DNA of 6,937 nucleotides, from IMG/VR virus record IMGVR_UViG_648276648_000006; one strand, 5' to 3'. Made by a program: the position numbers and the translations under genes. The stretch's first letter is position 1, and each line of letters starts with the position of its first letter. The notes under the pieces are model-generated. The model had not been told where the DNA came from, ran no database searches, and saw only the letters and a list, made by a program, of their open reading frames with translations. Shown here piece after piece: positions 1 through 6,937 of this stretch. This DNA comes from a virus. Lineage: Duplodnaviria > Heunggongvirae > Uroviricota > Caudoviricetes.

Positions 1-1
1 A

Positions 2-259
2 GCCGGATTACTGGCATCAACAGGGAGCACAGGCGACTCGTATGACAACGCGATGGCTGAGAGCATCAATGGTCTTTACAAAGCGGAGGTAATACACCGT
101 AAGAGCTGGAAAAACCGTGCAGAAGTGGAACTGGCCACACTCACGTGGGTGGACTGGTATAACAATCGACGATTGCTGGGAAGGCTGGGCCATACTCCTC
201 CGGCAGAAGCAGAAAAAGCTCATTATGCTTCCATCGGAAACAATGATCTGGCAGCCTGA
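2..259 (+). CDS. IS3-family transposase OrfB (DDE integrase core), C-terminal fragment; 5' end outside window
   Basis: Frame from position 2 translates to AGLLASTGSTGDSYDNAMAESINGLYKAEVIHRKSWKNRAEVELATLTWVDWYNNRRLLGRLGHTPPAEAEKAHYASIGNNDLAA, stop TGA at 257-259. The SYDNAMAESINGLYKAE...WYNNRRLLGRLGHTPPAEAE stretch is the conserved C-terminus of IS3-family (IS629-like) OrfB. Confidence 0.9.
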   Translation, partial: AGLLASTGSTGDSYDNAMAESINGLYKAEVIHRKSWKNRAEVELATLTWVDWYNNRRLLGRLGHTPPAEAEKAHYASIGNNDLAA

Positions 260-276
260 GTTCACAGATAAAACAC

Positions 277-301
277 TCTCCAGGAAAATCGGGGCGGTTC
301 A
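277..301 (+). repeat. Right terminal inverted repeat of the IS3-family element (approximate extent)
   Basis: Lies between the transposase stop (259) and the element terminus ...GGTTCA (301). The exact IR length cannot be set without the left end. Confidence 0.45.
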
Positions 302-868
302 GACGGCGATATTACAGCGACCGTAACCTTTGCCGGACTGGACTGGGAATCAAAGGCCGATGATACGAATTTTATCAAAGGCGAACCTGTGGATAGTGCA
401 GGAAAGCTACGTTATTCGTTTAAGGAGGTTTCAGCAGTAAGCCTGAATGGTGTTGCCGGAGGTAACGGTTTTTGTATCGACAGTTTTGATATTCAGTTCG
501 ATAACAAACTCCAGACACAGCGTTGTATCGGGACTGGCTCGCCTTATGCAGGAGCAAATATTCCGACTACTTTTACACCGTCCGGTACGGTGACGCTTTC
601 ATGGTCTAAAGCCGCGTGGGAAATCTGGAGTAAAACACTGACTGGAGAAACAGTTCCGTTCAGCTTCACGCTTTCGAATGGAGAGGGGGCATACACTTTC
701 AGTTTCCCGAAGGTTCAGGTGTCAGGTGAATGGCCTGATGGGGGTAATAGCGACATTATCCAGGTTCAATTGAGCATTACCGCAGCAGATGAAGCACCTA
801 CGATAACCAGAAAAAAAAATTCCCCGGCTGCCGTGATCGCAAAAGCCAGTGCTGAGGCGATTAGTTGA
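302..868 (+). pseudogene. Phage major tail (tube) protein gene, 3' portion only; 5' part displaced by the IS insertion
   Basis: Frame is open from the IS junction to TGA at 866-868 (internal GTG at 389 is the ORF-track start). Translation DGDITATVTFAGLDWESKADDTNFIKGEPVDSAGKLRYSFKEVSAV...FSFPKVQVSGEWPDGGNSDIIQVQLSITAADEAPTITRKK... is protein-like. It sits directly upstream of the G/G-T chaperone pair, where lambda-like phages place gene V. No native start or RBS exists downstream of the IS. The functional name is inferred from position, not from recognised sequence identity. Confidence 0.6.
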
Positions 869-916
869 TTTTCCGTTATTCCTCCTGTGGTACTGCCCTA
901 CAGGGGGACGCATTGA

Positions 917-1378
917 ATGAGGTTATGGATGTTTATTCTTAATCAGAAAATTATCATTGGTGGAGAACGCTGGTTTACGCCAATGAAGGACTTAAAACCT
1001 GTAGACGGGTTAAAACTGTTGGTGGCAAGCAGCGATAACGATCAGTATCGCTCCCGTAATGCATTAATCCGTCGCCACATTGAGAAAATGGATGCCAGTT
1101 TGCACGTCGGAACGAAGGAGTTTGATATTTCAAAGGTTTCCGAGGTGGATTCTGTTGATGATTTACTCATTGATAATGCCGCTCGTTATCTGCTGAAAGA
1201 CTGGAAAGGGGTTGGTGAACTGGTTAATGGTGTTGAGGTTGCACTGGAATATACGGCAGAACGAGGGATCGCGCTGCTCAAGCAGAATCCAGAGTTGTAC
1301 TGGCAGATCCTTGCAGAAGCAGCCAGCATCGCCCAGGGTAAAGAGCAGCAGAAGCAGGATACGATAAAAAAGCCATAG
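917..1378 (+). CDS. Tail assembly chaperone, gpG-like
   Basis: 153-codon ORF between the tail tube gene and the tape measure gene. GGGGGA at 903-908 is a Shine-Dalgarno 8 nt upstream of ATG 917 (alternative ATG at 929). Ends in a slippery heptamer followed by an open -1 frame, the hallmark of G/G-T chaperone pairs. Confidence 0.65.
   Translation: MRLWMFILNQKIIIGGERWFTPMKDLKPVDGLKLLVASSDNDQYRSRNALIRRHIEKMDASLHVGTKEFDISKVSEVDSVDDLLIDNAARYLLKDWKGVGELVNGVEVALEYTAERGIALLKQNPELYWQILAEAASIAQGKEQQKQDTIKKP
1366..1372 (+). promoter_or_regulatory. Candidate programmed -1 ribosomal frameshift site (slippery heptamer A_AAA_AAG)
   Basis: A AAA AAG in the G zero frame (codons AAA 1367-1369, AAG 1370-1372), 2 codons before the G stop (TAG 1376-1378). 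The -1 frame is open from 1342 to 1686. Confidence 0.6.
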
Positions 1379-1686
1379 CTGCCCAGCGGTGGTTATCGGA
1401 GTTCGGGGGAGAAAGGGGGGAAAAGGCAAGATGGAAGCGAGAAAAACTCAGGTTGCCACCGATACCGGAACCAGAAATAGACCCGGTGCTTAAGGAGTTG
1501 TTGTACGCCTATTCGGTAATATCCCGTGCCCGACGTTATGCTGGAATGGCTGGGGTGCCTTTGCCTTTATCTCTGACAGAGATAAATGAATATTTAGCCA
1601 CTCATCCGGTATTGATTGAGCGCGATGAATTTGAAGCAGTGATCTTTGCACTGGATGACCAGTATTTTCAGGAGCAGTGTGTGTAG
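1369..1686 (+). CDS. T-like extension of the tail assembly chaperone, expressed as a G-T fusion by -1 frameshifting (not independently initiated)
   Basis: The -1 frame relative to G reads ...AIAAQRWLSEFGGERGEKARWKREKLRLPPIPEPEIDPVLKELLYAYSVISRARRYAGMAGVPLPLSLTEINEYLATHPVLIERDEFEAVIFALDDQYFQEQCV, stop TAG 1684-1686. No ATG start: the ORF-track start at 1453 is TTG. Position immediately upstream of the tape measure gene matches the conserved G/G-T arrangement. Confidence 0.6.
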   Translation, partial: KAIAAQRWLSEFGGERGEKARWKREKLRLPPIPEPEIDPVLKELLYAYSVISRARRYAGMAGVPLPLSLTEINEYLATHPVLIERDEFEAVIFALDDQYFQEQCV

Positions 1687-1806
1687 TTGTTAATTACGTA
1701 CACTCTGTTACAGAGATGTGATGGTGTCTTTAATTAAATCGATGATGCTCCTGGAGAAAAGCATTGCGTGGCCTCGTAATCGCTATATCTACTATTATGT
1801 CGCCTG

Positions 1807-1830
1807 AAACCCACTTCGGTGGGCTTTTTG
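1807..1830 (+). terminator. Candidate intrinsic terminator or stable RNA hairpin in the T-H spacer
   Basis: CCCAC (1810-1814), loop TTCG (1815-1818), GTGGG (1819-1823), then C and TTTTT (1825-1829). This is a 5-bp GC stem with a UUCG tetraloop followed by a U-tract, flanked by AAA/TTT that could extend the stem. Confidence 0.4.
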
Positions 1831-1849
1831 TTGTCTGGAGTTTTAATAA

Positions 1850-4800
1850 ATGGCAGAGCAAACCTCGCGTCTCGCAATAATTATTGATAGCACTGGAGCA
1901 AAAAATAATGCTGACAATCTGACCTCCTCATTAGTCAAAATGACGCAGGCCGGGGAAACTGCTGCAAATAGCGCAGGGAAAGTGACTAAGGCAACAGAAG
2001 ATGAGAAGAACGCGCTCGCAAAATTAAAAGCAGCTATTGATCCAGTTGGTGCCGCAATTGATACTGTCGGTCGACGCTATTCTGAATTAAAGAAATTTTT
2101 CGATAAAGGGCTTATTGATAAAGAAGAATATGAATTTCTTGTCCGTAAACTTAATGAAACCACAGAGGAATTGAGCGGGGTTGCGCAAGCGCAGAGAGAA
2201 GCCGAGAAGGCCGGAAAACTTGCTGCCGCCCAGCAGGAATCGCAGGCTCAGGCCTTTCAAAGAATGCTGGACAAGATCGACCCTCTGGTTGCGGCGCTAA
2301 GAAATCTTGAACAACAGCAGGATGAACTTAATGCTGCGTTTGCATCCGGGAAAATAAATGGTTCTCAGTTTGAGAATTATAGCCGAAAAATACAGGAAAC
2401 ACGGCGAGAGCTTACCGGAGAGGCTCAGGCAGAGCGAGAAGCAGCAAAAGCGCATGATGAACAGGTTGCTGCTTTGCAACGTCTGATTGCTCAACTTGAC
2501 CCTGTCGGAACTGCTTTTAATCGTCTGGTAGAACAACAGAAACAGCTCAATGAAGCAAAAGCTAAGGGGATGCTCTCTCCTGAAATGTATGAGGAACTTT
2601 CTGGAAAACTTCGTGCTATGCGGAGTGAGCTTGAGGTTACTCAATCTCAATTAAGCAAAACCGGAATGTCGGCAAAACAAACGGCTTTTGCTATGCGCAT
2701 GTTGCCTGCACAAATGACGGATATTGTTGTTGGGTTGTCCACTGGTCAGTCGCCTTTTATGGTGTTAATGCAGCAGGGCGGCCAGCTAAAAGATATGTTC
2801 GGTGGGATTGGCCCGGCGATCAAAGGTGTTGGTTCTTATGTGCTGGGATTAATTAATCCTTTTACCCTGGCCGCAGCAGCCGTTGGCGTCTTAGGGCTGG
2901 CTTACTATAAAGGCTCTCAGGAGCAGGACGAATTTAATAAATCTCTTATTCTTACCGGAAATCAGTTGGGGACAACCAGCGGGCAATTGGCCGATATAGC
3001 TCAACGTGCCGGGAATGCGGCTGATTCGACAACTGGCGCTGCGGCGGCAGTATTAAACCAGCTTGTGCGTTCGGGAAAGGTAGCGAGCAGTTCGCTGGAG
3101 CAAGTGACGACAGCGATAGTAAAAACGAGCGAAGTAACAGGAATATCAACCGAACAACTGGTTAATGACTTCAATGAAATTGCAAAGGATCCTGTCAGTG
3201 CCATATCAAAACTTAATGATCAGTACCATTTTCTGACAATTGCGACTTATAACCAGATTAAGGCGCTACAGGATGAAGGGAACCAGCAGGAGGCCGCCCG
3301 CATTGCGACAGAAGCATACTCATCCTCAATGATCCAGCGCACCAACCAGATTAAAGAAAATCTTGGTTATCTTGAGACTGCATGGAAAGCTGTCGCAGAC
3401 TCCGCAAAATGGGCATGGGATTCCATGCTGGATATTGGCCGTGAGGCCTCCCTTGATCAAAAAATCTCAGATGTTCTCCGTCAAATTGATGAAATAGAAA
3501 AAAATACCCGACCCGGAGTTTTCGGGTTAGGTGGCATTGGAGATGGCGGAGCTCAAAATAAAAGGCTGGCACGATTAAAGCAGCAATTGGGCGTACTTCA
3601 AGCAGAAAAAATTGCTCAGGACGTACTAAATTCATCAATAAACGATTACAACAAGCGACAACAGGAAGGAATTGAACTCAGACAGAGAGCAGATGCCTTT
3701 TCAAAACAATATCAGACCCGGGAGCAGCAGAGAGCTAGTGAACTTGCAAAACTGGAAAAACTAAAGAGTCAGTATTCAAAGGAAGAATATAATAATCTTA
3801 TCGCTCAAATAAATGAGCGTTATAAAGATCCAAAGCAACCAAAGGCGAAAGGTTATTCGGATGATGCTGCCCAACGAATGATTGATCATCTGAATCAACA
3901 GAATGCGTTACTAAGTTCACAAACTGAATTAACCGTTAAATTAAGTTCCTCTGAACAGGAACTGGTTAAGTGGCGTCAGCAGATTGCCGACCTGGAGTCA
4001 CGACCGTCATCGAAATTAACCAAGGATCAGAAATCGCTTCTCTTACACCGGGAAGAAATAACCGCGTTGATGGAGAAAAATGTTGCGATTGAAAAAAATA
4101 ACAGGCTAATCAAGGAATCCGCCGAAATAGCTGCATGGCGTGATTCATTGCAGGCTTCGATTGATAATCGTCAACAGGGGTATGATATTCAGATTGCTGG
4201 TTATGGGGTTGGCGATAAAAATCAGCAACGCCAGCAGGAATTACTGCGGATTGAACGTGAATATAACAATCAGCGTCTGCAACTTGAACGTGACTATGCA
4301 GATAAATCCCGTGGGATGTCAAATCATGTTTTTCAGGAGAAAATGCAGGCTCTGAATGATGCTCTGGAACGAGAAAAAGAAATTGTCAGACAGAAAAACG
4401 AGCAGCTCGATATTCAGGCAGGAGACTGGGTTAGTGGTGCCTCCCAGGGATTCAATAACTGGCTGGATGACACTAAGGATATCAGTGAGCAGATAAAATC
4501 AACCACGACTCAGATGTTTGATGGAATGACCGATGCGCTGGGTGATTTTGTCACGACAGGCAAGGCAAATTTTCGTTCTTTCGCTACTTCCGTGATTTCG
4601 GATCTTAGTCGAATAGCATTAAAGGCTTCAATTACTCGGATTTTCGACAGCATTAGTAACAGTTCTTCGGGGGGGATTTTAGGAACTATCGGGAGTGCTA
4701 TTAGTAAATTTATTCCGAATGCAAAGGGCGGTGTTTATGAGTCTCCGTCATTGAACACGTATTCGAACGGTATTTATGATTCCCCGCAATTTTTTGCTTT

Positions 4801-5083
4801 TGCAAAAGGGGCTGGTGTTTTTGGTGAGGCTGGTCCGGAAGCCATTATGCCATTAACACGAACTTCCGATGGTTCTCTTGGTGTCAGAGCTATTAATAGT
4901 AAAAGTGGTAATGGAGGCGGAGATATTACCTATGCCCCTGTATACCAAATCACTATTCAAAATGACGGCCAGAATGGAGAGATTGGCCCTCAGGCAATAA
5001 AAGCACTTATGGGGATGGTTGATCAGCGGGTGCAGGGCAATCTGTTAAATATGCGACGTGATGGGGGAATGTTAAGTGGCTAA
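1850..5083 (+). CDS. H: Tail length tape measure protein (lambda gpH family), 1077 aa
   Basis: GGAG at 1837-1840 upstream of ATG 1850. Translation contains ...[41 protein letters not shown]... and C-terminal ...[20 protein letters not shown]...[10 protein letters not shown], matching lambda gpH motifs (MRMLPAQFTD...GGQSPWLILLQQGGQVKDSFGG; ...NNDGTNGQIGPAALKAV...MRDGGLFSG). Long coiled-coil-like, Q/E/K-rich central region is typical of tape measure proteins. The stop overlaps the M start. Confidence 0.95.
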
Positions 5084-5408
5084 TACGGAAGAATTTCACT
5101 GGTTACCAGAGGATGGAATGAAAACAGAAAATAAACCATCGATAAAAACTGTAAGATTTGGCGATGGTTATGAGCAACGAAGTCCAAATGGACTTAATCA
5201 TTCTCTGCGCGTTTTCACCTGTGATTTCAAAGTTGAGGCGAATGAACGTGATTCATTTGAAAAATTTTTAGCCCGGCATGAAGGCTATAAATCTTTTTTT
5301 GGCGCCCGCCTGGTATTAACAGAAAAATCAGAGTGGTGTGTCGAACGTGGTCAGCGACAGAACATATCACCTATACCGATTTTTCGTGTCAGTTTGACGA
5401 AGTGGTGA
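5076..5408 (+). CDS. M: Minor tail protein M (lambda gpM family), reading frame disrupted near the 3' end by an apparent 1-nt deletion in a T7 run
   Basis: GTG 5076 follows an in-frame TAA and overlaps the H stop by 8 nt. N-terminal part ...[35 protein letters not shown]...[14 protein letters not shown] matches lambda gpM (FRWKVKPGM...VRKVRFGDGYSQRAPAGLN...FLEEHGGWKSF). After the T-run at 5294-5300 the gpM-like C-terminus ([39 protein letters not shown]) is in the other frame and stops at TGA 5411-5413. Confidence 0.85.
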
Positions 5409-5412
5409 TCTG

Positions 5413-6111
5413 ATGCAGGACATACAACAGGAAACGCTGAATGAATGCATTCGTGCGGAGCAGTCGGCCAGCGTGGTGCTCTGGGAAATCGACCTGACCG
5501 AGGTAGGCGGGGATCGCTACTTTTTCTGCAATGAGCAGAACGAGAAAGGAGAGTCTGTCACCTGGCAGAGTCGGCAGTATCAGGCCTATCCCATTCAGGG
5601 GAGTGGATTTGAGATGAACGGCAAAGGTGCCAGTGCAAGGCCAACGCTGAAAGTCTCTAATCTGCACGGCATGGTCACCGGGATGGCGGAAGACCTGCAG
5701 AGTCTGGTCGGCGGAACGGTGGTCAGGCGTAAGGTTTACGCCCGTTTTCTGGATGCGGTGAACTTCGTCAACGGAAACAGTGACGCCGATCCGGAGCAGG
5801 AGGTGATCAGCCGCTGGCGTATTGAGCAGTGCAGCGAACTGAGCGCGGTCAGTGCCTCCTTTGTACTGTCCACGCCGACGGAAACGGACGGCGCTGTTTT
5901 TCCGGGGCGCATCATGCTTGCTAATACCTGCACCTGGACCTATCGCGGTGATGAGTGCGGTTATCACGGTCCGGCGGTCGCGGATGAATATGACCAGCCG
6001 ACATCCGAAATCACGAAGGATAAATGCAGCAAATGCCTGAGTGGCTGTAAGTTCCGCAATAATGTCGGCAACTTTGGCGGCTTCCTTTCCATTAACAAAC
6101 TTTCGCAGTAA
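5413..6111 (+). CDS. L: Minor tail protein L (lambda gpL), 232 aa
   Basis: Translation MQDIQQETLNECIRAEQSASVVLWEIDLTEVGGDRYFFCNEQNEKGE...CSKCLSGCKFRNNVGNFGGFLSINKLSQ is near-identical to lambda gpL as I recall it, with the same length. ATG 5413 overlaps the inferred true M stop (TGATG). Confidence 0.96.
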   Translation: MQDIQQETLNECIRAEQSASVVLWEIDLTEVGGDRYFFCNEQNEKGESVTWQSRQYQAYPIQGSGFEMNGKGASARPTLKVSNLHGMVTGMAEDLQSLVGGTVVRRKVYARFLDAVNFVNGNSDADPEQEVISRWRIEQCSELSAVSASFVLSTPTETDGAVFPGRIMLANTCTWTYRGDECGYHGPAVADEYDQPTSEITKDKCSKCLSGCKFRNNVGNFGGFLSINKLSQ

Positions 6112-6116
6112 ATCCC

Positions 6117-6860
6117 ATGACAGAGACAGAATCAGCGATTCTGGCGCACGCCCGGCGATGTGCGCCAGCGGAGTCGTGCGGCTTCGTGGTGAGAACGCCG
6201 GAAGGGGAAAGATATTTTCCCTGCGTGAATATCTCCGGTGAGCCGGAGGCGTATTTCCGGATGGCTCCGGAGGACTGGCTGCGGGCAGAAATGCAGGGTG
6301 AGATTGTGGCGCTGGTCCACAGTCACCCCGGTGCTCTGCCCTGGCTGAGTGAGGCCGACCGGCGGCTGCAGGTGCAGAGTGATTTGCCGTGGTGGCTGGT
6401 CTGCCGGGGGGCGATTCACAAGTTCCGCTGTGTGCCACATCTTACCGGGCGGCGCTTTGAGCACGGGGTGACGGACTGTTACACGCTGTTCCGGGATGCT
6501 TACCATCTGGCGGGAATTGAGATGCCTGATTTTCATCGTGAGGATGACTGGTGGCGTCACGGTCAGAATCTCTATCTGGATAATATGGAGGCAACGGGGC
6601 TGTATCAGGTGCCGTTGTCAGCGGCGCAGCCGGGCGATGTGCTGCTGTGCTGTTTTGGTTCATCGGTGCCGAATCATGCCGCTATTTACTGCGGCGACGG
6701 CGAGCTGCTGCACCATATTCCTGAACAACTGAGCAAACGAGAGAGGTATACCGACAAATGGCAGCGACGCACACACTCCCTCTGGCGTCACCGGGCATGG
6801 CACGTATCTGCCTTTACGGGGATTTGCAACGATTTGGCCGCCGCATCGACCTTCGTGTGA
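6117..6860 (+). CDS. K: Tail assembly protein K (lambda gpK family), with JAMM/MPN metalloprotease-like and NlpC/P60 domains
   Basis: Translation MTETESAILAHARRCAPAESCGFVV...EIVALVHSHPGALPWLSEAD (JAMM motif HxHx7Sx2D, His codons at 6318-6326)...GVTDCYTLF (NlpC/P60 Cys, about 6477-6479)...VPNHAAIY. Near-identical to lambda gpK as I recall it. Starts 5 nt after the L stop. Confidence 0.95.
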   Translation: MTETESAILAHARRCAPAESCGFVVRTPEGERYFPCVNISGEPEAYFRMAPEDWLRAEMQGEIVALVHSHPGALPWLSEADRRLQVQSDLPWWLVCRGAIHKFRCVPHLTGRRFEHGVTDCYTLFRDAYHLAGIEMPDFHREDDWWRHGQNLYLDNMEATGLYQVPLSAAQPGDVLLCCFGSSVPNHAAIYCGDGELLHHIPEQLSKRERYTDKWQRRTHSLWRHRAWHVSAFTGICNDLAAASTFV

Positions 6861-6937
6861 AAACGGGGCCGAAGCCATCCGGGCGCTGGCCATGCAGATC
6901 CCGGCGTTTCGTCAGAAACTGAGCGATGGCTGGTATC
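6758..6937 (+). CDS. I: Tail assembly protein I (lambda gpI family), N-terminal part; frame disrupted at a G4 run; 3' end outside window
   Basis: ATG 6758 gives MAATHTLPLASPGMARICLYGDLQRFGRRIDLRVKTG, matching the lambda gpI N-terminus, and overlaps K by 103 nt. After GGGG at 6865-6868 the gpI-like sequence AEAIRALAMQIPAFRQKLSDGWY continues in the +1 frame, while the starting frame hits TGA at 6920-6922. Confidence 0.85.

Follow-up and report, generated by a model that had tools for sequence, protein, structure and literature searches.

Does the interrupted reading frame of the tail gene M in this phage DNA reflect a genuine lesion, a site at which the frame is shifted during expression, or an error in the recorded sequence? 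The window analyzed here, that is, the entire stretch of 6,937 nucleotides, encompasses a lambda-type tail gene module with all features on the plus strand, in the order tape measure, M, L, K and I. The H-like tape measure gene (1850..5083; 1077 amino acids; matches to PF06791, PF24622 and PF09718) overlaps the start of M by 8 nt. M is followed by the tail tip gene L (5413..6111; 232 amino acids; PF05100), named minor tail protein L in the annotations of the relatives, then by K (6117-6860) and by the 5' part of the tail assembly gene I (6758..6937). Accordingly located between the tape measure gene and L, M occupies the same position as its lambda counterpart.

Gene M is broken at a run of seven thymines

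As recorded, M begins with the GTG at 5076 and ends with the TGA at 5406-5408, encoding 110 amino acids in frame 0; the corresponding product of the source genome is EGI22786.1, “phage minor tail protein [Escherichia coli M718]”. The open reading frame passes through a run of exactly seven T (T7) at 5294-5300 (aatcTTTTTTTgg), where the frame-0 codons are UCU UUU UUU GGC, with UUU UUU at 5295-5300. Up to and including this run (5076..5300, codons 1-75, GTG start, ending in ...HEGYKSFF), M is the same as in the relatives that carry eight T (T8), from which it is separated by a single alignment gap at the run, and this part covers positions 1-83 of the PF05939 (Phage_min_tail) model. Beyond the run (5301..5408), the recorded frame continues through 35 codons (GARLVL...SLTKW and the stop) that show no homology, and the Pfam match ends at residue 87.

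The missing part of the gene is found in the -1 frame (5300..5413). From the T-run on, lambda M (J02459; ...KSFLWTPPYEWRQIKVTCAKWSSRVSMLRVEFSAEFEQVVN) aligns with this frame column for column, the -1 frame completes the PF05939 match to 108/108, and it stops at the TGA at 5411-5413, which overlaps the ATG of L at 5413-5415 (TGATG at 5411-5415). The lambda genes are joined by a one-base overlap as well, with M at 13100-13429 and L at 13429-14127. The -1 frame from the T-run is the real frame of M. The preliminary description had placed the break at this run, citing the lambda gpM C-terminus and a lambda-like stop/start overlap with L; run length, reading frame and overlap are all borne out, and the lambda C-terminus that it gave is correct.

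Addition of one T yields an M gene of 112 codons, as had been anticipated, and the resulting 112-residue protein is identical to WP_000024051.1, the M protein of the closest relative, E. coli FDAARGOS_1058, and is present on at least 1000 public contigs. The restored protein matches PF05939 over positions 1-108 of 108 with 109.8 bits (cut-off 39), compared to only 1-83 of 108 and 76 bits for the reading frame as recorded. It also matches the solved structure of the lambda Tail tip protein M (8iyk_M) with E=2e-25, residues 6-111 of the query aligning with residues 3-108 of the chain. This locus belongs to the lambda gpM family (PF05939); its product as recorded is a truncated or garbled version that results from a frame error.

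The source assembly and its differences from the closest relative

The window is one whole contig of scaffold GL884111.1 from the draft genome of E. coli M718 (GCA_000176575.2), being 100% identical to positions 2926-9862 of the M718 locus that we extracted. This scaffold was identified through an exact match to the recorded 110-residue product; our searches recovered no literature on GCA_000176575 or on strain M718. Gaps bound the contig on both sides: the left one (703 N) falls within an IS3-family element, and the right one (676 N), which begins immediately after 6937, within genes I/J. The right end of the IS element (1..301; IS1203/IS629-like, annotated as IS1203 in cS100a and matching rve_3/rve_2) is inserted in the tail tube gene, of which the 3' fragment (302..868) is thereby separated from the 5' part; PF18906 is detected on both fragments. 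Both junctions of this insertion are seen in M718, with a 3-bp overlap between the flanks that resembles a target duplication. None of the E. coli complete genomes in our collection shares the junction between the IS and the tail tube gene. Because the IS splits the tail tube gene, the M718 prophage is defective regardless of whether M is intact.

The 3' part of the tail tube gene also contains the longest homopolymer in the window, A9 at 811-819 (...ITRKKNSP...), the only run longer than the eight T that form the longest homopolymer in the restored M. In the nearest relative, this run is A9 as well. Length changes of an A-run of matching size, perhaps this one, occur in two error-rich assemblies, an insertion giving A10 in one (L074) and a deletion from A9 in the other (L075).

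Aligned with E. coli FDAARGOS_1058 over 6636 nt (302-6937), the window shows no substitutions and exactly two 1-nt deletions, both in homopolymers: T8 to T7 at 5294, in M, and G5 to G4 at 6865, in I. Each of these breaks a tail gene. The G4 run (6865..6868), an alignment gap relative to the G5 of the relatives, lies 70 nt from the contig end in a gene that runs off the contig and of which the N-terminus matches PF06805. As recorded, gene I reads ...RVKTGPKPSGRW...N* and is broken at about codon 37, and with G5, the lambda-like reading ...RVKTGAEAIRALAMQIPAFRQKLSDGWY is restored. The exact 71-mer with the G4 state is present in 0 of 4034 E. coli records, and a look-up of the 54-residue product of the broken I gene returned no record.

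The 10 kb of the M718 prophage upstream of the window contain another N-gap and another two changes in homopolymer length. The first of these, GG to GGG (position 1245 of the upstream locus, L084), splits the large terminase of M718 into 283 and 164 amino acids, compared to 433 amino acids in the relatives; the second, T5 to T6 (position 6355 of the same locus), is located in the intergenic spacer that follows the capsid gene. Neither of the corresponding 71-mers has an exact match among the matching E. coli records (763 for the terminase GGG and 726 for the intergenic T6). Altogether, about 19 kb of the M718 assembly show four single-base changes in homopolymer length (two losses and two gains of a base), of which three are private and three break essential phage genes; in addition, there are three N-gaps in ~20 kb. 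Thus, two hallmarks of homopolymer error are present, namely, differences confined to run length, without substitutions, and further run-length discrepancies together with poor contiguity in the same assembly.

An entry of another name, OU349840.1 (GCA_910664795.1; a 5.4-Mb ‘chromosome’ record, loci L078/L085), contains the M718 prophage with the IS-split tail tube gene, T7, G4, the split terminase and N-gaps in matching positions, and has zero substitutions relative to FDAARGOS_1058 over the stretch corresponding to the window. Given that it repeats the layout and the gaps of M718, we rejected this entry as independent support for T7 and G4; it appears to be a re-scaffolded or re-issued copy of the M718 assembly.

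The state of the prophage bears directly on the possibility that the deletion in M is real, that is, a T8 to T7 deletion by replication slippage that turned M into a true pseudogene during neutral decay of an IS-disabled prophage. The IS insertion is itself real, as its two junctions and overlapping flanks (3 bp) indicate, and an insertion in the tail tube gene would relax selection on M, so that a true frameshift in M would cost this prophage nothing. The pattern of differences from FDAARGOS_1058 nevertheless fits such a history poorly. In E. coli mutation-accumulation spectra, substitutions outnumber indels about tenfold, and therefore, two indels accompanied by zero substitutions over 6.6 kb are unlikely to represent a real history. 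The three further private homopolymer changes and the three N-gaps within 20 kb are likewise more compatible with assembly noise than with decay.

Length of the T-run among relatives and in other loci

Eight T is by far the prevalent state of the run. Ten phage records, Salmonella phage SPF_0923 and nine vB_EcoS phages, match at 98-99.8% identity; T8 is seen in all three of those that were aligned, all nine vB_EcoS matches span 502 nt for a 501-nt query, and T8 is indicated in 10 of the 10 phage records covering the query. Among the 50 IMG/VR contigs with the motif, 47 have T8, two have T7 (L025 and L034, which, at 97.5-98.2% identity to the window, are not its source) and one has T9. Only two species representatives in GTDB contain the motif, Shigella flexneri SFBU0723 and Escherichia ruysiae, both with T8. 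In E. coli complete genomes that carry the gene, T7 was found in at least 8 of about 707 (~1%), in unrelated strains from human, turkey, mouse, dog, wastewater and chicken sources. This count is pooled from two queries of the 71-mer type, of which the first gave 1/667 and the second added seven. The frequency of 1/667 was rejected because a T/G polymorphism at 5311 had hidden T7 alleles of the other subtype: with the first query, T7 alleles of the CCGGGT subtype fall in the same identity band as T8. In addition, a T7-type protein with a different neighboring codon (P0003) is encoded on 363 contigs.

The comparison with orthologous prophages that the preliminary description had recommended thus shows near-identical prophages and phages with T8 and an intact 112-codon gene. 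Its framing of the problem, a real inactivating indel or a homopolymer error, holds, given the T8 state of these near-identical relatives and the label ‘frameshifted’ that PGAP assigned to the T7 gene of E. coli Z142-7. The sister isolates Z142-2 and Z142-4 have T8 and zero mismatches to Z142-7 over 10.5 kb. The distribution of run lengths does not resemble that of a phase-variable switch, for which both lengths would be common in close populations: T7 accounts for ~1%, T9 was encountered once in 50 contigs, and the T7 off state is scattered, mostly, in error-rich assemblies.

Other deletions have been recorded next to the run. In the protein variants P0005/P0013 and P0006/P0012 (homologous to 5294-5312), T8 is kept and one base is lost just downstream, leading into the same wrong frame; the products of these downstream-loss variants read FFWRRRVL where CCC has become CC, and FFCARRVL where GG has become G. 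Several of the respective accessions look like routine surveillance assemblies.

We compared 21 other T7-bearing loci with a panel of T8 references. In 14 of the 21, nearby runs also contain isolated 1-nt indels, the most common being G7 to G6 at window position 4669 and A7 to A6 at 3498 or 4092, and some of the long T7 contigs contain 8 to more than 30 such indels, with the tape measure, L and J genes in pieces. In the remaining 7 of the 21, T7 is the sole clean indel over 1-12 kb: L004 (Z142-7), L025, L070, L076 (E. coli M056), L079, L081 and L082, of which L070 and L081 are metagenome scaffolds. Judging from these comparisons, the change from T8 to T7 is evidently a frequent artefact. Because it is the sole indel in seven loci, including the two metagenome scaffolds, real T8 to T7 mutants probably exist, too.

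Several of these observations are compatible with a real deletion in M718 as well: T7 recurs in ~1% of complete genomes of unrelated strains and as a lone indel in the seven loci, and the 1-nt deletions adjoining the run in public proteins suggest a mutable spot. Genes of E. coli show a deficit of UUUUUUU in every frame, for which transcriptional slippage or high indel rates have been suggested as the cause (Sharma et al. 2014, PMC4066793); the latter possibility, a high rate of indel mutation, would be in line with a replication-slippage origin of T7. Furthermore, a Logan assembly of run SRR024329 (L065) has zero substitutions relative to the window and also shows T7, along with an A7 to A6 change; if SRR024329 is the sequencing run of M718 itself, T7 would be at least the majority call in the reads. 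Set against this, most of the other T7 contigs are visibly error-rich. On the whole, we regard a genuine slippage deletion, with M as a true pseudogene, as a tentative and rather unlikely explanation for M718.

The explanation that we favor, and consider fairly probable, is that T7 in M718 is a homopolymer error of sequencing or assembly. It is preferred because the window shows only two differences from FDAARGOS_1058, both of them run-length deletions; because additional private run-length changes, in both directions, adjoin it in the M718 prophage; and because the contig is flanked by gaps, T8 is the longest run in M, and T7 elsewhere travels with obvious homopolymer errors. Under this explanation, the true sequence of this lambdoid prophage of M718 would have T8 and an intact M of 112 codons, with the stop overlapping the start of L; T7 would be an under-call of homopolymer length that entered the consensus of an old, gap-ridden draft; and EGI22786.1, with its 110 residues and novel 35-residue tail, would be an annotation artefact. 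The occurrence of T7 as a lone indel in seven loci, the presence of P0003 on hundreds of contigs and the prior inactivation of the M718 prophage by the IS count against an error. The source of the window, the second homopolymer deletion and the frequency of T7 elsewhere tilt the choice towards a sequencing error without settling it, and it is on the pattern of differences that we infer sequencing, rather than mutation, to be the cause.

In either case, there is nothing new in biological terms: the break is an artefact of assembly or else makes M an ordinary pseudogene of a prophage that is defective anyway. Should the T7 of M718 prove real, it would simply add a lesion to a prophage that the IS had already inactivated. 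The main import is one of data hygiene: EGI22786.1 and about 44 similar database proteins that end in GAR(L/R)VLTEKSEW...TKW derive from a common gene through frame errors and should not be taken for a variant gpM family. The approach also lends itself to read-free triage of similar cases, by comparing a sequence with its nearest relative, asking whether all the differences are in run length, and asking whether other assemblies with the same state have run-length errors nearby.

Frameshifting at the run and comparison with known systems

A T7 run in an otherwise intact gene also brings to mind programmed or compensatory recoding, in which a -1 slip of the ribosome, or one U added by RNA polymerase, would yield the T8 protein. 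In the zero frame, T7 forms a formally perfect X_XXY_YYZ heptamer, U_UUU_UUU at 5294-5300, and the predicted product of the -1 slip is identical to the T8 product. Herpesvirus thymidine kinase is one of the documented cases in which a homopolymer indel is compensated by frameshifting at a low level (PMC5009743). However, the two-frame state is not conserved, as ~99% of the relatives have T8, with M in one frame, and lambda lacks a run at the position of the T-run in M. The downstream segment (5301-5380) has a predicted minimum free energy of -20.6 kcal/mol (z = -1.23), with 22 of 200 shuffled sequences at least as stable, so that no unusual stimulatory structure is apparent there. Efficient slippage of RNA polymerase has been described for runs of 9 A or T (Atkins et al. 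2016, PMC5009743), compared to 7 in M. With the arrangement not conserved and the downstream structure unremarkable, we rejected programmed frameshifting at T7, and consider recoding of any kind an extremely improbable account of this locus; a real T7 allele would be slightly leaky at most.

A broader scenario, in which the T8 tract is a true mutational hot spot that repeatedly disables tail tip assembly in resident prophages, with T7 alleles slightly leaky through -1 slippage of the ribosome or RNA polymerase at U_UUU_UUU and the ~1% frequency of T7 reflecting biology, appears to us highly unlikely.

Elsewhere in the window, a slippery heptamer is present at a more familiar place. The YdaY-like chaperone ORF (917-1378) has the classic heptamer A_AAA_AAG at its end (1366-1372), in the zero frame, and the -1 frame, open over 1342-1686, holds a 77-residue ORF (1453-1686). 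This arrangement looks like a programmed -1 frameshift of the tail assembly chaperone of the lambda G/GT type.

Four known systems provide the frame of reference for the M locus. Lambda gpM (PF05939; 8iyk chain M) occupies the same slot in the H-M-L-K-I-J tail module, and is 109 amino acids long compared to 112 for the restored M, with 41-44% identity along the length; the stop/start overlap of M and L in lambda is the same as that of the restored M and L. Unlike lambda gpM, the recorded M has its last 37 codons in the -1 frame, on account of T7, and the called product swaps in 35 unrelated residues. In the lambda G/GT type of frameshifting, to which the chaperone site in the window conforms, a slippery heptamer at the end of the ORF is combined with an overlapping -1 ORF that is open past it, whereas T7 in M is a rare departure from an in-frame T8. 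The intact M genes of nearly identical prophages of E. coli and of phages (WP_000024051.1; Salmonella phage SPF_0923; Escherichia phages vB_EcoS-606R9 and others) have T8 where the window has T7; apart from run length, the DNA of the window is the same as that of FDAARGOS_1058, and its identity to the phage records is 98-99.8%. Finally, the locus resembles homopolymer miscalls in draft and long-read assemblies: here, too, run lengths alone change, several times within a short stretch, in both directions and with zero substitutions, and elsewhere T7 is found together with G7 to G6 and A7 to A6. By these signs, we infer that T7 of M718 belongs to this class of miscalls.
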